From positions 316,210-380,209 of the forward strand of contig CAZDCG010000001.1 in assembly GCA_964503955.1 (NCBI GenBank): DNA of 64,000 nt, written 5' to 3'. Shown piece after piece: positions 5,372 through 62,900 of this stretch; position 1 is the stretch's first letter; the number at the start of each line of letters is the position of its first letter. Under the pieces are notes generated by a model that saw only the letters and a program-made list of their open reading frames with translations, did not search any database and was not told where the DNA came from. Position numbers and translations under genes: made by a program. This stretch comes from an uncultured Gammaproteobacteria bacterium (GTDB taxonomy: Bacteria; Patescibacteriota; Patescibacteriia; VMEV01; CAYQCH01).

Positions 5372-5447
5372 GGACCGGTGGTGTAGCGGTTAACATGCCT
5401 CCCTGTCACGGAGGAGATCGCGGGTTCGATTCCCGTCCGGTCCGCCA
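5372..5447 (+). tRNA. tRNA-Asp (anticodon GTC)
   Basis: GGACCGGTGGTGTAGCGGTTAACATGCCTCCCTGTCACGGAGGAGATCGCGGGTTCGATTCCCGTCCGGTCCGCCA. The cloverleaf, CTGTCAC anticodon loop, GTTCGATTC T-loop and encoded CCA are very close to E. coli tRNA-Asp. Confidence 0.9.
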
Positions 5448-6628
5448 CGAAGAGCCCCGTATTCACGGGGTTTTTCGTTTTGGGGCGCGGGCGTGTTGCC
5501 CACGGGTTGCCCAAGGATTGCTGAAGTCGGCGCCAGTGTCGGCGTGAGCGGCCCCAACTGGAAGACGAAGGACGATACCTCTCGCGCCGGCGAGAGCGGC
5601 CGACGGTCAAGCCGATCGACGAACTCCTTGAGGCGAGAGGGCTCGAGGTGGCTGTAGCGCATGGTGACCCGAATGTCACTATGGCCCAGCAGTTCCTGCA
5701 CGACCTTGAGGTGAGCGCCCGTTGCCACGAGGTGCGAGGCGAAGGTGTGGCGCAGTACATGCCACCCGACTTTGCGGAGGCCGGCAGCGGCGCACGCTTG
5801 CTTGAGCACGCGCGCCATGGCGTCTTGGTCCGAGTGCTTGCGGCCCGCGTCTTGCCCGAAGACAAAGCCCCTGCGGTGCGGCCATGCCCTCAGTGCTTCC
5901 TTCACGTCCTCGCTGAGCGGCACGTGGCGGATCTTGTTGCTCTTGGGAGGGCCGAGGCGGCGTCTCACCAGTGCCCGCCTCACCGTCAGCAGGCTCCCCT
6001 CGAGGTCGACGTCGGACCAGTCCAGCGCCAGCAGCTCTCCCAGGCGGAGCCCGGTGCGCATGGCGACGAGCACGACTCCACGCCAGAACGTGTCCTTCAT
6101 GCTCCGCAAGAGACGTTCGCTCTCCTCCAGCGTGAGGAAGTCGAACGCCTGAGGTGGAACGGGAAGAAGCCGGATCTTCGGGCGGCGGTCGAGCTCGCCC
6201 CACTCCTCGGCAATGCTAAGAGCCCGGCCGAGGGCGGCCAGGTAGTTGTTGACGGTCTTGGGCGCATAACCCTCTGCGCGCCTCGCCGCCTTGAAGCTCT
6301 CGATCAGCTTGGGGGAGATCTCATCGAGCCCGCACTCCCCGAAGAAGGGCAAGAGCTGACGGTCCAGAATAGACCGCTTCGTGCGCTGCTCGGAGTGGCG
6401 GTTGTTGGGCACGACGTACTCTCGGTACCACCGCTCGGCGAACTCCGCGAAAGTGGTGGCCTTGACGACAGGTGCGTCTGGATCAAAGCCGAGCGCGAGC
6501 TGGCGGCGGAAGTAGGTTTCGTACGCGGCAGCGCCCGCCCGGCTGCTTTCCGGGCTCTTGCGGCGATAGCGGATGCCAGCGTGGCGGAAGTCAATCCACC
6601 AGCGGTTGCGGATCTTGCGAGCGCTCAT
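5390..6628 (-). CDS. int: tyrosine-type site-specific integrase (phage-integrase family)
   Basis: Core-binding and catalytic domains with R...HVLRHTFASHLV (HxxR)...RVTMRYSHL (catalytic Tyr). The ORF runs with no stop through the att core and into the tRNA on the opposite strand, so the last ~60 codons are probably not authentic or reflect the recombinant junction. Confidence 0.9.
   Translation of the reverse strand: MSARKIRNRWWIDFRHAGIRYRRKSPESSRAGAAAYETYFRRQLALGFDPDAPVVKATTFAEFAERWYREYVVPNNRHSEQRTKRSILDRQLLPFFGECGLDEISPKLIESFKAARRAEGYAPKTVNNYLAALGRALSIAEEWGELDRRPKIRLLPVPPQAFDFLTLEESERLLRSMKDTFWRGVVLVAMRTGLRLGELLALDWSDVDLEGSLLTVRRALVRRRLGPPKSNKIRHVPLSEDVKEALRAWPHRRGFVFGQDAGRKHSDQDAMARVLKQACAAAGLRKVGWHVLRHTFASHLVATGAHLKVVQELLGHSDIRVTMRYSHLEPSRLKEFVDRLDRRPLSPAREVSSFVFQLGPLTPTLAPTSAILGQPVGNTPAPQNEKPREYGALRGGPDGNRTRDLLRDREAC
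5424..5448 (+). repeat. attL core (within tRNA-Asp 3' end)
   Basis: Exact 25-nt match to 9326-9350. Confidence 0.85.
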
Positions 6629-6894
6629 GGGGTGTTGTCGTCAACGGAGCCCACGCGGTGCTTGGCCAAGTAGGCCGCCAGGTCCTCCCGCGAGAAGCGC
6701 AGACTGCGGAGTACGCGGTGGAAGGGCAGCCGGCGCTGCTCCACAAGTCTGTAGACGCTGGCCCTGGAGATACCCAGCTGGCGGGCGACCTGGTCTGGCG
6801 TGAGGAGAAGGGGCGGCAAGGCGTGGTCCGGACGATGATGCCGTGGTTGGGCCGAATTGCGCAAATCCGGACTGTGGATAAGATCGTTGAGCAT
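6625..6894 (-). CDS. xis: excisionase/AlpA-like helix-turn-helix DNA-binding protein
   Basis: LLTPDQVARQLGISRASVYRLVEQRRLPFHRV is the HTH_17/Xis signature; overlaps the int start by 4 nt (xis-int operon). Confidence 0.7.
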   Translation of the reverse strand: MLNDLIHSPDLRNSAQPRHHRPDHALPPLLLTPDQVARQLGISRASVYRLVEQRRLPFHRVLRSLRFSREDLAAYLAKHRVGSVDDNTP

Positions 6895-7074
6895 GTTTTA
6901 TGTGGCTAAGGCTAGCGGAGAATCTATGTCCTCCCGCCCGGCAGGGACACGAACCTCGGTCGGTGTCCCTGCCAGGGTGACGGCGGCGCGAGGTGCGGCC
7001 GCACAGGCGCGAGGGCGCCCGGGAGGTGGCCAGCGGTGAGCTGGCCACGCCCGTGCCCGGGCGCTTCCGACCGG

Positions 7075-7635
7075 TCACGAGCTTGGCCTTCTCGTAGGCG
7101 GGAGAATCTTCTGCTCAATCAGATATGCCGCACCCACGGCTGCAGCGTCGAACATGTTGAGCCAGAAGGTCTCCTTCCACGCGTGGGTCTGGATCTTGTA
7201 AATCGCTAGTTCGGGGTAACGACGAATGATCTCGGTGGCGACAGTGGGCTTCTTGGCGTTTCCGTTCAGGCAGAGAATCGCTCGCGCTGAGCGCGGGGCA
7301 TACTCGACGACCAAGCCGTCGACGACGACGACCCGCTGCTCTCCGCTAGTGCGGACCGTCACCCGGTCGTTCACGACGACGGCGTCGCCGCTTCCGGGCT
7401 CGAGATCGAAGAACGTCTGCTGCTCGTCTTGGCTCACCCGGCAATCGTGCCTTACGGCCTCGTTGCCGCAAGGCAATAACGGGACACGTTCTGGTCCGCG
7501 CAATTGCCCGAGCGCTCCCGGGCCAAGCCCGCCTGTAGCGGCATCAGCAGGCGCTACGAGCCGCCGGCGGAGTCGAAAGGCGGACACATTGCGGTCCGCA
7601 GCTACCCGGCTGCCAGCCCTGCTACGACAGGGCAT
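7075..7635 (-). CDS. island cargo, hypothetical protein (start uncertain; the N-terminal ~60 codons may be non-coding)
   Basis: Only non-low-complexity frame in GC-rich DNA; the C-terminal ~110 aa (VVVNDRVTVRTSGEQRVVVVDGLVVEYAPRSARAILCLNGNAKKPT...IYKIQTHAWKETFWLNMFDAAAVGAAYLIEQK) is globular-looking; no family recognised by eye. Confidence 0.35.
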   Translation of the reverse strand: MPCRSRAGSRVAADRNVSAFRLRRRLVAPADAATGGLGPGALGQLRGPERVPLLPCGNEAVRHDCRVSQDEQQTFFDLEPGSGDAVVVNDRVTVRTSGEQRVVVVDGLVVEYAPRSARAILCLNGNAKKPTVATEIIRRYPELAIYKIQTHAWKETFWLNMFDAAAVGAAYLIEQKILPPTRRPSS

Positions 7636-7975
7636 GTCAGGAGGTCTGGAGTCTGGAGGAGGTGCGCGCCCACTTCCGGCGCCGCCTCGACGCCTACGTC
7701 TGCGAGGTCATGACCGAGCGCGCGTCCGCGCGCGCGGCGCTGGCCCCCAGGAAGGCCGACGATCGCAGCGCGACACTCCCCTACGGCTGCGGGACCTACT
7801 GGCTGGTCCGCTTCCACGGCGCGTCATGCGAGCACGCCCCGCCGGCCTGAGCGGCGAGCCGGGCCGCCGCGACGCGAGGCGCCCGGCGCGAGCGAGCTCG
7901 ATTGCGCGGCGCGCAGGCCGAGCGTGGATCGACGGAGCGCTGGAGCTCGCGGACGGCGCGGCAGTACCTGCCCAC

Positions 7976-8611
7976 TCACTGACCAGGACGAGGCGGAGCA
8001 TGCGCGAGAGCACTGAACTCGCCTACGTTCTGCATGGCATAATCAATAAGGCAATCATAAACGCGATCGCACTCGCCCTCAAAATTTAGAAACACCCTAC
8101 CCACAACGGTATCCTCCAAGCGCCCGTCGTATGCCCCGATACTCTCCAAGAACTCTCGACGTGCGTCGAGGTCTAGATGGGGATTTGGCCCTGGGAATGC
8201 GGCTACCGCCTCCGCCAAGTAACGAGCGGCATCGCGTGCCCCTATCTCCTCCAATGCCTGCACAAAAACAGAATACGACGGATTCCCGCCCCCGGCGAGA
8301 AGGTAGCAGTAGGCGTCGAGCAGAAACGGCTTGGCCTGGTCGAAGTCGAGCCAGATCAGGGCGTCAGCAATTTGACACCGCTCGCCAAAGTCGGCAAAAT
8401 CAAGAACGCTCACGTGGGGTGTTTCCTCGTGGGCCAGGATCCAGTTTACGCTGGACCTGGGGTAGCAGGTGGCTCCACCGCCTGCTGCCCGAACCCAGCA
8501 CTTGATCCCCCTGGCAGCCCTGGCGCAGTCAGGGGGTTTTCGTTGCAGGAGGGCGTGATCGATAGGCCGAGGGTGCTGCACCCGGCAAAAACAACGGACA
8601 GCATGGCACAA
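7976..8611 (-). CDS. island cargo, hypothetical protein (likely starts at the internal GTG near VSVLDFADF; ~145 aa)
   Basis: Conserved-looking region ...LDFADFGERCQIADALIWLDFDQAKPFLLDAYCYLLAGGGNPSYSVFVQALEEIG...; the N-terminal part of the long ORF is Cys/Arg-rich junk typical of wrong-frame GC-rich DNA. Confidence 0.4.
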   Translation of the reverse strand: MCHAVRCFCRVQHPRPIDHALLQRKPPDCARAARGIKCWVRAAGGGATCYPRSSVNWILAHEETPHVSVLDFADFGERCQIADALIWLDFDQAKPFLLDAYCYLLAGGGNPSYSVFVQALEEIGARDAARYLAEAVAAFPGPNPHLDLDARREFLESIGAYDGRLEDTVVGRVFLNFEGECDRVYDCLIDYAMQNVGEFSALAHAPPRPGQ

Positions 8612-8727
8612 ATAACGGCGATGACGGCTACTTTGCTAGTCGAGCCACCACTCTCGCGGCCAGTGGTCTGTGCATAGCCCTTGACAGTTAAGGAATTATG
8701 AACCAATCTCTGCCTAGAGTCGCTCAC
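8446..8727 (-). CDS. possible small lipoprotein (signal peptide + FAGC lipobox), island cargo
   Basis: Alternative frame overlapping the 5' end of the previous ORF: ...KVAVIAVICAMLSVVFAGCSTLGLSITPSCNENP... has a classic n-h-c lipoprotein signal; ends just before the probable GTG start of the downstream gene. Confidence 0.25.
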   Translation of the reverse strand: MSDSRQRLVHNSLTVKGYAQTTGRESGGSTSKVAVIAVICAMLSVVFAGCSTLGLSITPSCNENPLTAPGLPGGSSAGFGQQAVEPPATPGPA

Positions 8728-9325
8728 CTTTGTCCTCCCGTGGAAGGGTGCGCGATCCGCTGCTCCGGGAGCACCAGATCCGCCACCTGTGGCCTTGCTC
8801 CAGGTGCGTCAACACCCGGGGCTCGCGGCTCAGCGGCCCCCGAGGTCTACAGCTTCGGGGGTCTTCTCGCGCGAAAACCGATCTGACGATTCCGTGTGTC
8901 GGGCCCAGAGTCAACTGATTTCCCAACGACAGAATGAAAACCTCTCCACACCTTCTCAACGTCCGAGGCAGGGGCGCGTAACGCGCTGTTCTGTCAGGCC
9001 TTGCTCTTCGCGCGCGGTGGAGAGCAGGGCGAGAGTGACCAGGGCACAGACGGACAGGAGTCGCCTCCCTCGCTCCCGCTGCGAGATCGTCTTGTGGGAC
9101 GAGAGAGCAGTCGGACGAGATCCCACCGAGTCAGCGACTTGGCACCTGTGGCCGGTCTGGTCGTCCATGAGCTCCGGCGTTGACCGTTGCCCACCGATTG
9201 CCCAGGAAGTGCGGATTCAGCGGGGAAACAGCGCTGAACTGACCTGAGCTGAGAATCTCGATTCTGAGCTAAGGTTAGAGGAATTCCGCTAGAGCTAGCG
9301 ACGCTTCCGCTTTCGCCTCCTGCGC

Positions 9326-9350
9326 GTTCGATTCCCGTCCGGTCCGCCAC
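9326..9350 (+). repeat. attR core (duplicated tRNA-Asp 3' end)
   Basis: Exact 25-nt match to 5424-5448 with no tRNA body upstream of it. Confidence 0.85.
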
Positions 9351-9413
9351 AGAGCCACTCAGCAATAGCTGGGTGGTTTTGTTATACTGCACAGGGCTTT
9401 CTTATTTAGCCTC

Positions 9414-10421
9414 TTGTTTATGGCTTTAGCGTCTCTCTTCTTGCTGCTTTCCTTCCTGAGTTTTCTGGCCTTAGTCATCGGGCTTGTTGACCCTCAGGTG
9501 ATCAGCAATATCACGCGGCAAACGTTATCAAGAAAAGAAATCACTCTCCGTTTTAGTTTGGTCATGATGGCAAGTTTTATTCTCACCGTTGTATTCACTC
9601 CAATCGACCAGGATTATGAGCAAGCCGTAAAATTAGCTGATGAGCCTCGTATAGAAGAATCTGCAAGTTCAATAGCTTTTACGGGCAGCGAGGAGGAACT
9701 CGCAAAGATAACCGATGCTGAGGAGGCTGAGAATTCTACCGAGCAAATAACGCAACAAGCATTGGCCGTCGATGAAGAGGAAGCGGATTACGCCACAAAT
9801 ATCTATCCCGTAAAACAGATCATCGACGGGGATACGATTGACATTGAAGTTAATGGAAACATCACTCGTATTCGTATGATCGGCCTGGATTCTCCTGAAA
9901 AAGACCAATGTTATTTTCAAGATGCAAAAAATAAAATCGCAAGTTTGCTGTCAGGCACATCGGTGACTCTTGAGTATGATCCAAGCCAGGGAGAAAAAGA
10001 CCGATATGGACGCACCCTGGCTTATGTTTTTTTGAAAGACGGAACAAATGTTCAGCAAATCTTGATTCGAGAGGGTTTTGCAAAAGAATACACCTACAAT
10101 ACGGCTTACAAATATCAGACGCTCTTTAAAGAAGCCCAAGAAGAAGCAAAATCAAAAGGTCTGGGCATCTGGAGTTCAGCCTGTGCCGCCCCGGCGCAGC
10201 CGGTCGCAGTAATTCCAGAAGAAAAAGAAACAGCAACAACGCCTCCCCCAGCAGCGCCCGATCTTGTGACATACAATTGCTCTGCCAATGTCTACAACTG
10301 CGCCGACTTCTCCTCTCATCAAGAAGCGCAGGAACTTTACGAATACTGTCTGAAGCAAAGAGGATATGATGTTCACGCTCTCGACCGAGACAAAGACGGG
10401 CTGGCTTGCGAATCTCTCTAA
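9414..10421 (+). CDS. membrane-anchored thermonuclease (SNase-like) with C-terminal Excalibur Ca-binding domain
   Basis: N-terminal TM helix, SNase core (IIDGDTIDIEVNG...RIRMIGLDSPE...RYGRTLAYVF) and C-terminal DRDKDGLACE Excalibur motif. Confidence 0.85.
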   Translation: MFMALASLFLLLSFLSFLALVIGLVDPQVISNITRQTLSRKEITLRFSLVMMASFILTVVFTPIDQDYEQAVKLADEPRIEESASSIAFTGSEEELAKITDAEEAENSTEQITQQALAVDEEEADYATNIYPVKQIIDGDTIDIEVNGNITRIRMIGLDSPEKDQCYFQDAKNKIASLLSGTSVTLEYDPSQGEKDRYGRTLAYVFLKDGTNVQQILIREGFAKEYTYNTAYKYQTLFKEAQEEAKSKGLGIWSSACAAPAQPVAVIPEEKETATTPPPAAPDLVTYNCSANVYNCADFSSHQEAQELYEYCLKQRGYDVHALDRDKDGLACESL

Positions 10422-61190: not shown

Positions 61191-62900
61191 ATGTCCTACA
61201 ACGAACTTATCAAACAAATCGTCGCGCAACAACCGTCATCCAGAAACGAGATGCAGACGATCATTCGTACACATATCAAATCACGCGGAGCATCCTTTCC
61301 GCGTTTTTCGCATTTGCTTGAAGCCTATCGATCCTTGGTGGCCGGCAAGGAGCTTGAAGCGCAGCCCTGGCTTGAGCCGCTGCTTATCAAACGCGCGATC
61401 CGCACGCTTTCGGGCGTAGCGCCTGTCCATGTCATGACGGCACCGCTTGGATGTCCGGCCAATTGCCTGTACTGCCCGAATGAGCCGGGCATGCCCAAAA
61501 GCTATCTTTCCAATCAGCCGGGTTCCATGCGCGCGATTCTCAATGACTTTGACCCGTACAAACAAGTCACCATGCGGCTGCGCGCGCTCTATCAGAACGG
61601 ACACCATCCCGAAAAAATCGAATTGGTTGAAAATGGCGGAACATGGACCGCGCTGCCACGTCGTTACCGCACCTGGTTTATCACCCGCTGCTATCAAGCT
61701 GCCAATGATTTTGATCCTCAAGACTTTGTCAAAACAACGGACTTCATTCCGTCTAATAATTCCCGTTTGACGATTTTAAACCGGCTCAAAGAACAGCCTG
61801 ATCATCTGCTGAAAGCATCGCTGCGCTTGCATGACGAAGACGACGAGGATTTGCTTACCGAACTTTTTGCCGCGCAAAAGATGAATGAAACAGCCCGCTA
61901 TCGCATCATCGGCATCACGCTTGAAACCCGCCCTGACTGGCTGGCTGATGATGAAATCCATCACCTGCGTCTCATGGGCTGCACCAAGCTTGAGATCGGC
62001 GTACAAAGCATCAATGAAGAAGTATTGAAATGGAATAATCGCGGACATGGCGTAGAGGCAGTTATTAACGCGACGCAAGCCTTGCGCGACGCGGGCTTTA
62101 AAGTCGGCTACCATATGATGCCGGGGATGTTTAAGTCCACACCGGAATCAGACAAACAAATGTTTGTGGAGCTCTTCGCCAACCCCGCGTTTAAGCCGGA
62201 CTTTCTCAAAGTTTATCCTTGCGTTGTCGTGCAAGAAGCTCCTCTGTATAAACTCTGGGAGCGCGGTGAGTATAAACCCTATGAAGGAGACGAACTCATC
62301 GACGTACTGATTACCATTTCACAGACCTTCCCCCGCTATTGCCGCGTCGCGCGCCTCATTCGCGATATTCCTTCAGAAAGTATTTCGGGCGGGAATAAAA
62401 TCACCAATCTCAGAGAAGTCGTTGAGCAAAACATGCGCCAGCTTGGAATTGCTTCGCAAGATATCCGCGCTCGCGAAGTCATGGGCAATGTGCAGAATGA
62501 AGAACTGGCGCACAATGATCTCGTGTATGAAACCATCAACGGCGAAGAGCATTTCCTCAGCTTTGACGGGCAGGATTCCGACAAGCTCTACGCATTCCTG
62601 CGCTTGCGGCTCCCGCAAAGCAATTCCCATTTGATCAAAACAACCTTTCCCGAGCTGATGAATGCCGCGCTGATCCGCGAAGTGCATACCTATGGCAAGC
62701 TCGCGCGTATTGGAAATGACGATGAGACAAAGCAGGCGCAACACAAAGGACTTGGCAAACAGCTGATGGAAAAAGCCGAAGAGCTTGCGCGCAATCGTGG
62801 TTATAAAAAAATCGCCGTCATCGCCGGCGTGGGAACGCGCGAATATTATCGAAAATTCGGCTACGAGCTTGAGGGGACATATATGGTGAAACCGCTCTAA
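61191..62900 (+). CDS. Elp3-like radical SAM + GNAT acetyltransferase (tRNA U34 modification family)
   Basis: Radical-SAM Cys cluster (GCPANCLYCPN), a large radical-SAM core, and a C-terminal GNAT fold (...[41 protein letters not shown]). Confidence 0.8.
   Translation: MSYNELIKQIVAQQPSSRNEMQTIIRTHIKSRGASFPRFSHLLEAYRSLVAGKELEAQPWLEPLLIKRAIRTLSGVAPVHVMTAPLGCPANCLYCPNEPGMPKSYLSNQPGSMRAILNDFDPYKQVTMRLRALYQNGHHPEKIELVENGGTWTALPRRYRTWFITRCYQAANDFDPQDFVKTTDFIPSNNSRLTILNRLKEQPDHLLKASLRLHDEDDEDLLTELFAAQKMNETARYRIIGITLETRPDWLADDEIHHLRLMGCTKLEIGVQSINEEVLKWNNRGHGVEAVINATQALRDAGFKVGYHMMPGMFKSTPESDKQMFVELFANPAFKPDFLKVYPCVVVQEAPLYKLWERGEYKPYEGDELIDVLITISQTFPRYCRVARLIRDIPSESISGGNKITNLREVVEQNMRQLGIASQDIRAREVMGNVQNEELAHNDLVYETINGEEHFLSFDGQDSDKLYAFLRLRLPQSNSHLIKTTFPELMNAALIREVHTYGKLARIGNDDETKQAQHKGLGKQLMEKAEELARNRGYKKIAVIAGVGTREYYRKFGYELEGTYMVKPL
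62798..62900 (+). repeat. elp3 3' end, copy 1 of a ~92-bp direct repeat
   Basis: ttataaaaaaatcgccgtcatcgccggcgtgggaacgcgcgaatattatcgaaaattcggctacgagcttgaggggacatatatggtgaa is repeated at 63638-63730 with ~6 mismatches and one 1-nt deletion. Confidence 0.8.

Follow-up and report, generated by a model that had tools for sequence, protein, structure and literature searches.

A GC-rich islet at a tRNA-Asp gene as a probable reduced member of a widespread xis-int family of integrative elements

Introduction

What is a block of markedly GC-rich DNA doing directly behind the sole tRNA gene of an otherwise ordinary stretch of bacterial chromosome, and do its few genes amount to a payload? The locus that raises this question occupies positions 5372-9350 of the window, by which we mean throughout the whole stretch of DNA analysed, 64,000 nucleotides of contig CAZDCG010000001.1 (NCBI GenBank assembly GCA_964503955.1, positions 316,210 to 380,209). 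A preliminary description, drawn up from the letters alone, had proposed a small integrative island at tRNA-Asp, with an integrase gene (int), an excisionase gene (xis) and true attachment (att) repeats. For its cargo, a set of intact genes that could not be placed, a role in defence, anti-defence or toxin immunity was suggested. The anatomy and the composition reported here agree with the first proposal; the second is not supported. Anatomy, foreign composition, homology of int, xis and a RuvC-like fragment, the geometry of a split attP and the reproducibility of both junctions make it likely that the island is a genomic islet, namely a site-specific integrative element in reduced and probably non-autonomous form, from a widespread tRNA-targeting xis-int family. 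The element is a degraded representative of an already known kind of integrative element, and what is new relative to the first reading is the conserved split attP with its arm sites.

Results

Insertion site and composition

ARAGORN recognizes one tRNA gene in the window, tRNA-Asp(GTC), which is complete, as had been described. The island is tied to this gene by the following features.

5372..5447, + strand: intact tRNA-Asp(GTC) gene (ARAGORN; Rfam RF00005, 66.7 bits), its 3' end predicted to be element-supplied (attL)
5424..5448, + strand: attL core, exact 25-bp repeat (repeat search)
5447..5482, + strand: element-borne hairpin and T-run, predicted terminator of the reconstituted tRNA (fold)
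9326..9350, + strand: attR core, partial copy of the tRNA 3' end (repeat search)
9349..9386, + strand: predicted original tRNA-Asp terminator, displaced by the insertion (fold)

The repeat search bears out the 25-bp identity with the tRNA 3' end given in the preliminary description, and extends it to a direct repeat (5420-5448 and 9322-9350) identical in 28 of 29 bases, with the single mismatch at 9325. The repeat is not common elsewhere: with up to three mismatches allowed, two copies are present in the 64 kb and none is expected from shuffles. A complete tRNA gene that borders the DNA on one side, with its 3' end repeated directly on the other, is the anatomy of a tRNA-integrated genomic island. 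The two terminators of the preliminary description, the original one displaced distally and a second one after the tRNA, correspond to strong folds. The distal hairpin (9349-9382; -24.1 kcal/mol, z = -7.5 against shuffles) is followed by TTTTGTT, and the proximal one (5447-5478; -22.2 kcal/mol, z = -6.7) by a T-run.

The DNA between the cores (5449-9325) has a GC content of 64.5%, against 50.9 +/- 1.8% in the other 3.9-kb segments of the window, the highest of which reaches 56.8%. Its tetranucleotide distance to the host amounts to z = 14, and its GC-normalized tetranucleotide correlation with the host is 0.53, compared with 0.91 +/- 0.02 for the other segments. Computation thus bears out the markedly GC-richer 3.9 kb seen on inspection, and the island is, in composition, distinct from its host.

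Both ends of the island recur in separately assembled Logan contigs, found by exact-protein look-up in eight sequencing runs of the Sequence Read Archive (SRA), all from one series (SRR118438xx). A literature search for these runs returned nothing. The left junction (host flank, tRNA, int, xis and ORF186, an open reading frame (ORF) described below) and the right junction (DMP19-like gene, ORF93, attR and the adjacent thermonuclease gene) are each present in contigs of seven runs, at 100% identity to the window. All Logan contigs break inside the island, at 7682/7697 or at 7848/7850, leaving 167 bp unbridged. A drop in coverage is the simplest reason for this gap, because nowhere in the island is the GC content higher (74-80%). 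Since both junctions recur in separate assemblies, the island is no assembly chimera.

The recombination module

5390..6628, - strand: tyrosine integrase gene (int), 412 amino acids (PF00589, 5e-32, 111 bits against a cut-off of 27.1; phrog_1, 1e-73)
6625..6894, - strand: excisionase or recombination directionality factor gene (xis, HTH_17), 89 amino acids (profiles)

The integrase is a tyrosine recombinase both by its profile score and by its catalytic residues (R195, K229, H290-x-x-R293, H316 and Y325), which are invariant in an alignment with 11 homologs and include the R, HxxR and Y that the preliminary description had listed. Identity with the core-genome recombinases XerC and XerD was considered and rejected: the protein reaches 99 and 95.5 bits against NCBIfam equivalog cut-offs of 335 and 330, and its gene also adjoins xis and att sites. 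The product of xis matches HTH_17 (1.6e-15, 57.5 bits; cut-off 27) and TIGR01764 'excise' (51.3 bits; cut-off 28.8) and is encoded directly upstream of int, as an excisionase should be. The stop codon of xis overlaps the start codon of int in ATGA, which agrees with the translational coupling suggested previously.

Among the candidates scored, 769 homologs of the integrase were found at E <= 1e-20, the closest being 56% identical. They come from diverse lineages of metagenome-assembled genomes (MAGs), including Planctomycetes, Patescibacteria, Dehalococcoidales, Desulfosarcina and Methanoregula. A homologous xis lies upstream of int at six related loci (L018, L019, L020, L022, L028 and L029), and the backbone of the family can be written as (replication or recombination gene)-xis-int-attP, with the target set by a core that resembles a tRNA 3' end. 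The gene upstream of xis is RepSA-like in L018, the locus with the closest integrase, and RuvC-like in L019 and L029; Primase/Toprim genes are found nearby in L020 and L028.

Arm repeats and a split attP

5496..5513, + strand: P' arm-type repeat, TTGCCCA-N4-TTGCCCA, about 48-49 nt inside the attL core and within the 3' tail of the int ORF
9187..9204, + strand: P arm-type repeat, TTGCCCA-N4-TTGCCCA, 121 nt before the attR core
Predicted junctions after excision: attP, ...CCTGCGC, the 25-bp core and GAAGAGCCCC...; attB, the full tRNA-Asp and then AGAGCCACTCAGC...

The paired motif, with an 11-bp period (TRF), occurs exactly twice in the 64 kb (0.04 expected), once at each end of the island and in like orientation, and it is kept beside int in relatives. 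An attP was built in silico by joining 9150-9350 to 5449-5570, and aligned with the DNA 3' of int at L018, L020, L022, L028 and L029. The common order is a P arm (GTTGCCCACCGGTTGCCCA...), a core like a tRNA 3' end (GGTTCGAaTCCC...CCA), a GC hairpin with a T-run, a P' arm and the 3' end of int; the hairpin stands at the position equivalent to that of the island in the attP of L018, L020 and L028. From P arm to core there are 121 nt in the window and 119-131 nt at L018, L020, L022 and L028, and from core to P' arm 49 nt and 48-72 nt, respectively; L029 has both arms, the core pattern was not found there, and the spacing hence comes from four loci only. No tRNA gene was found at these five loci, and their attP is therefore unsplit. 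At L019 the element is integrated in a tRNA-Pro gene and the P' arm alone lies beside int. The core of L018 is identical to the tRNA-Asp core of the window at 23 of 24 positions.

The arrangement in the window fits what is predicted from recombination of attP with attB at a tRNA-like core. The TTGCCCA-N4-TTGCCCA pairs, which flank the core on both sides and are conserved in related attPs, are putative arm-type binding sites of the integrase. This layout (P arm, about 120 nt, tRNA-like core, terminator, about 50-70 nt, P' arm, int) is conserved at about 50% integrase identity and in very different hosts, and could be used for the automatic delimiting of such elements. In viral contigs the arm motif gave three matches, none with an integrase near, which is chance level. 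As to the setting of the relatives, the contig that holds L020 (NCBI) is 250 kb long, and the genes next to L029 look metabolic.

The arm repeats also account for a peculiarity of the integrase. Its conserved body ends near residue 345-378, and the frame of the tail crosses the P' arm and the att core and enters the tRNA gene. A motif near the C-terminus, FGQPVGN, is invariant or nearly so in 12 homologs and is the P' arm DNA (GGGCAACCCGTGGGCAAC) in translation, so that a conserved "protein motif" is in fact a DNA site read as protein. The int frame runs about 65 codons beyond the conserved domain (5390-5560), and a similar read-through of the core into tRNA-derived sequence is seen in several relatives. 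In the excised form, the predicted C-terminus of the integrase would shift from ...NRTRDLLRDREAC to ...NRTRRRRKRKRR.

A chimeric reading frame upstream of xis

7075..7635, - strand: ORF186, chimeric open frame read as a deletion scar, 186 amino acids (hidden Markov model (HMM) and homology)
7108..7311, - strand: 3' fragment of a RuvC-like gene, ORF186 residues 109-176, the C-terminal 40% of the family
7306..7422, - strand: 5' fragment of a gene for a helix-turn-helix (HTH) protein, ORF186 residues 72-110, fused in frame, with the junction at about 7306-7314

The preliminary description had listed a conserved-looking domain of about 110 amino acids in 7075..7635 as cargo that could not be placed. 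No family for ORF186 is found in Pfam, NCBIfam, PHROGs or PADLOC, and a word-seeded search of 5.8 billion proteins returned the query itself only. A full HMMER scan of 1.84 billion representatives yielded 94 matches of two kinds. About 90 of them align residues 109-175 of ORF186 with residues ~100-165 of RuvC-family (PF02075) proteins of ~170-200 amino acids. Another two are the N-termini (first ~40 residues) of proteins P0195 and P0216, which are 55-60% identical to ORF186 residues 72-113 (E = 1.5e-4 and 7.5e-4 against the 1.84 billion proteins). P0216 continues into a weak HTH_28/29 (IS630/IS481-like) domain that ORF186 does not have. When an HMM of the RuvC-like family (53 sequences, length 174) was run with all filters off, ORF186 was matched at positions 100-167 of 174 only, with 90 bits and an abrupt start at "VVEYAPR". 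Positions 1-99, which hold the Asp motif DPG(S/T) and the Glu motif E(R/K), matched nothing in any frame of 6900-8000. ORF186 is thus no member of the RuvC resolvase family PF02075: it has no Pfam match, and the catalytic N-terminal half is missing. The notion of a collinear, very diverged full-length RuvC, hinted at by a MAFFT alignment, was rejected on account of the blank positions 1-99 and of the better match of residues 72-110 to P0195 and P0216.

Intact RuvC-like genes, 52-58% identical to the ORF186 tail, lie directly upstream of xis-int in L019 and L029. Because ORF186 fuses a C-terminal RuvC-like piece to the N-terminus of an HTH protein, and because the order RuvC-like-xis-int is intact in these two relatives, ORF186 is best read as a deletion scar, although it might conceivably act as a chimeric protein. 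The coding-type signal in third-position GC content (GC3) begins only near 7450, so the GTG at 7437 is a likelier start than the ATG at 7635. A tblastn search of the island for remnants of other genes of L018, L019, L020 and L022 matched only int, xis and the RuvC fragment. Searches of viral contigs turned up no relatives of ORF186 or P0216, and P0216 had no tblastn match among phages and plasmids. When metagenomes were scanned with the alignment of the HTH fragment, 209 patterns matched, none of which was confirmed, the query being too short.

ORF93 and a marginal DMP19-like protein

7976..8413, - strand: acidic protein of 145 amino acids (P0002), GTG start, marginal DMP19 match (PF14300)
8446..8727, - strand: ORF93, 93 amino acids, lipoprotein-like, with a hydrophobic segment ending in FAGC (Cys50), GTG start

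Both reading frames are called as genes in independent assemblies, where the 145-amino-acid call is identical and ORF93 is called at its full 93 codons. The preliminary description was hence right about a gene at 8446..8727 and about the GTG start of the 145-amino-acid protein. It was less so in calling the latter unplaceable, since the protein marginally matches PF14300 (25.7 bits, cut-off 25; profile positions 33-88 of 112); the 211-residue form encoded by the full frame (7976-8611) remains below the cut-off (24.6 bits). The protein is markedly acidic, with an isoelectric point (pI) of 4.23 and 24 D/E against 10 K/R. A plausible ribosome-binding site, GAGGAA, precedes its GTG by 11 nt, and GGGAGGA stands 5 nt before that of ORF93. 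ORF93 ends 32 nt upstream of the 145-amino-acid gene, and the two are probably co-transcribed. The lipobox-like FAGC of ORF93, a regular-expression match, is preceded by an unusually long n-region.

Relatives of the 145-amino-acid protein were sought in the 5.8 billion proteins (word-seeded search), which returned only the protein itself, in phages and plasmids (tblastn) and in viral contigs, which returned none; it has no pairwise similarity to PDB chains, DMP19 included. A single-sequence AlphaFold model is all-helical and unreliable (mean confidence, pLDDT, 44). For ORF93 there is no family in Pfam, NCBIfam, PHROGs or PADLOC. DMP19, a mimic of DNA, blocks HU as well as a transcription factor (PMC3384305; PMC5722371), and DMP19-like proteins are conserved on some integrative and conjugative elements (ICEs), where an anti-defence role has been suggested and is unproven (bioRxiv 10.64898/2026.08.04.741601); a literature search for PF14300 itself returned nothing. 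By analogy, the 145-amino-acid protein may, quite tentatively, be a DNA-mimic-type inhibitor of a DNA-binding protein.

PADLOC assigned no cargo gene to a defence system, its only cargo match being that of the 211-residue frame (13.4 bits, E = 0.011), and matched Xis to mad1 through a generic HTH (35.1 bits). The cargo had no match in PHROGs, nor the island in a blastn search of phages and plasmids. The island therefore does not fall among the anti-phage defence systems known to PADLOC. With ORF186 a remnant, the 145-amino-acid protein a marginal DMP19 match and no defence or toxin family matched, the idea of a payload of intact genes in such a module is not supported.

Remaining features and surroundings

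6937..6976, no strand: inverted repeat with 19-nt arms and no T-run, in the gap that separates xis from the RuvC-like remnant (-37 kcal/mol, z = -4 to -4.6)
7636..7975, no strand: stretch of 74-80% GC with no supported gene (no family in six-frame pieces)
8728..9186, no strand: about 460 bp with no supported gene (no Pfam match in six-frame pieces; weak frame signal)

The inverted repeat may be an operator for xis-int or a terminator that lacks a T-run. A 13-nt Shine-Dalgarno-like sequence, CGGGAGGACAWAG on the minus strand, occurs twice in the island. The copy at 8728-8740 lies 5 nt before the start of ORF93; the other, at 6924-6936, comes after the 6937-6976 hairpin and 29 nt before the ATG of xis, and has no start codon behind it. 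The very GC-rich stretch includes a plus-strand ORF of 62 amino acids (7662-7850; GC3 0.94) that belongs to no family and whose frame stays GC3-rich past its TGA stop; the stretch (7640-7975) could be a pseudogene or just extreme composition. The region 8728-9186 presumably holds the promoter of ORF93 and the DMP19-like gene, and the inner P arm region.

The remainder of the window is ordinary chromosome, with genes for DnaE, PheT, ThrS, GatB and MiaB; at 61191-62900 it encodes a bacterial Elp3-type radical SAM/GNAT tRNA-modification enzyme (TIGR01211, 540 bits). The product of the gene next to attR (9414-10421) is a thermonuclease (SNase) that is membrane-anchored and has an Excalibur domain. 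A search of a genome collection found five relatives of this nuclease (33-49% identity), of which three come from Patescibacteria-type MAGs, one from a gammaproteobacterial and one from a Nanoarchaeota MAG. All five are distant, and with neither synteny nor a nearby tRNA in any of them they provide no empty site and no more than a hint of the host's taxonomy.

Integrases 41-47% identical to that of the island are encoded on eight predicted proviral contigs of 22-60 kb (L031-L038, IMG/VR). Seven of these have a GC content of 63-71% and one of 54%, while that of L018, the closest relative, is 44%, and high GC seems to be common in this branch of the integrase family. Neither the arm motif nor the RuvC-like gene was found on the eight contigs.

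Discussion

The island can be accommodated in a history that begins with a larger element. In this model, the chromosomal tRNA-Asp gene would have undergone integrase-mediated recombination with an attP core imitating its last 25-29 nt, so that the element supplies a new tRNA 3' end together with a terminator of its own, while the old copy of the 3' end and its terminator are shifted 3.9 kb to the right. The tRNA would stay functional because both parts are supplied anew. The core and the arm repeats, one of which is now found at either end, would serve as binding sites for the integrase, and Xis (HTH_17) would bias the reaction toward excision. Before or after arrival, an internal deletion could then have run from about codon 45 of an HTH-protein gene to about codon 100 of the RuvC-like gene (immediately upstream of xis in relatives that have it intact), leaving the in-frame fusion ORF186. 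The functions for excision and re-integration would thereby have been kept and the adjoining gene or genes lost. Judged on its sequence, the recombination module (int, xis, terminator and two arm repeats) looks complete; functions for replication, transfer or packaging are not carried, and the possible payload would be a two-gene unit of ORF93 and the acidic 145-amino-acid protein. The locus thus serves as a worked example in which the promising "unknown cargo" of a 3.9-kb island is for the most part what a larger element left behind, with the DMP19-like orphan as the sole candidate for a new function, on thin evidence.

Several observations weigh against this reading. Neither an empty tRNA-Asp site nor the element's excised (attP) form was found in assemblies or in metagenome and viral scans (no match to the attB/attR junction in the metagenome scan, none to the attP junction in the viral scan, and no empty site in the Logan junction contigs), among which there was no close relative of the host, so that mobility in this host is unproven. 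The sampled populations are clonal, with one and the same island sequence in every run sampled. The in-frame fusion of ORF186 has stayed open, and its GC3 is still coding-like. The source family of its HTH fragment is not seen in any related element, and the deletion scenario for this reason rests on two short homologies. Finally, some of the relatives with an unsplit attP sit on long contigs (L020, 250 kb).

The failure to find an empty site or an attP junction in any assembly, the uniformity across runs and the clear internal decay of ORF186 would also suit an immobile fossil, the product of a single integration whose excision has been lost and whose int and xis frames are intact only through recency. 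We consider this unlikely, since the catalytic residues, the overlapping xis, the exact 25-bp cores and both arm repeats are all intact, and assemblies would miss a rare excised form anyway. An error of assembly or binning, by which high-GC DNA of another organism was wrongly joined into a contig of 51% GC, would produce the abrupt jump in composition, and every Logan contig does break within the island, between 7683 and 7849. However, each junction is joined to its host flank at full identity in seven runs assembled independently, the two halves of the island hold the matching halves of one attP, and the unbridged 167 bp are merely the most GC-rich stretch; an artefact is accordingly most improbable.

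The idea of a functional mini-island, moved by int and xis and perhaps mobilized by a helper, that carries a compact defence, anti-defence or toxin-immunity module (ORF186, the 145-amino-acid protein and the lipoprotein) can draw on the completeness of the recombination module and the plausible ribosome-binding sites of ORF93 and the 145-amino-acid gene. It can also draw on an acidic protein (pI 4.2) that just reaches the Pfam cut-off for DMP19, a family for which residence on some ICEs has led to the unproven suggestion of anti-defence (bioRxiv 10.64898/2026.08.04.741601). We nonetheless judge it improbable. PADLOC and PHROGs identified nothing in the cargo (best PADLOC match 13.4 bits, E = 0.011), ORF186 is a truncated RuvC-like piece fused to a piece of another gene, and the DMP19 match covers half the profile and is accompanied by no pairwise similarity in PDB. 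Moreover, ORF93 and the 145-amino-acid gene are without detectable relatives in 5.8 billion proteins, phages and plasmids, and therefore form no conserved module. Bolder still, and in our view rather far-fetched, would be an excision-competent minimal hitch-hiker from a high-GC donor, in a host with Patescibacteria-like neighbouring genes, in which ORF93 and the DMP19-like gene, as the sole payload, form a new DNA-mimic-type module for anti-defence or host manipulation and the state of integration alters the C-terminus of the integrase through the arm sites in its frame. A reduced integrative element with a conserved attP layout remains the reading that we favour.

The gene-level resemblances to known proteins are partial. 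Over residues 109-176, ORF186 is 45-58% identical to the C-terminal part of RuvC-family resolvases (PF02075; phage RuvC-like, phrog_159), including the Asp of the 'FDA' segment, but it is missing some 100 N-terminal residues, including the Asp motif DPG(S/T) and the Glu motif E(R/K), and therefore cannot be an active resolvase. The 145-amino-acid protein resembles Neisseria DMP19 (PMC3384305; PMC5722371) in being small and strongly acidic, in its 25.7-bit profile score and, at low confidence, in its predicted all-helical fold. It differs in matching profile positions 33-88 of 112 only and in having no pairwise match to the solved DMP19, and its gene has no adjacent XRE-type partner such as NHTF.

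As a whole, the element shares its closest similarities with three groups of integrative systems. With integrase systems of the lambda/P4 type it has in common a tyrosine recombinase with R-K-HxxR-H-Y residues, a small HTH excisionase, direct arm-type repeats that flank a short core and, as in P4-like elements, integration at a tRNA 3' end. In contrast to these systems it has no phage structural or lysis genes, its int frame extends across core and P' arm, and the TTGCCCA repeats are sites to which Int is only predicted, from sequence, to bind. The island also lacks genes for replication and packaging such as phage satellites should have, although no satellite-specific test was made. Likeness also extends to the pSAM2-type integrative and conjugative elements of actinomycetes (AICEs), which span 9-24 kb (review PMC2440964): they show the same order of (replication or recombination gene)-xis-int-attP, and an attP beside int whose core is a tRNA 3' end, so that integration regenerates the tRNA, and the closest integrase (56%, L018) lies behind a RepSA/REP_ORF2-like gene and xis. 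The island, however, measures 3.9 kb and is without rep, FtsK-like tra and spd genes. It has a RuvC-like remnant, not Rep, upstream of xis, and it resides in a host of 51% GC whose neighbouring gene is best matched in Patescibacteria-type MAGs and not in actinomycetes. No RepSA/RepAM, Prim-Pol or FtsK-like Tra domain was found in its ORFs and six-frame pieces, and it fails as an AICE because it has neither Rep nor Tra. The third group comprises the small, tRNA-targeting elements of the tycheposon type (bioRxiv 10.1101/2020.12.28.424599), of which no specific genes were found in the island, none having been sought, and the cryptic or degraded integrative elements from which ORFans may arise (Cortez et al. 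2009, PMC2718499). The likeness to this group lies in generic features alone: a small island flanked by a tRNA gene, an integrase, atypical composition and orphan genes without detectable relatives.

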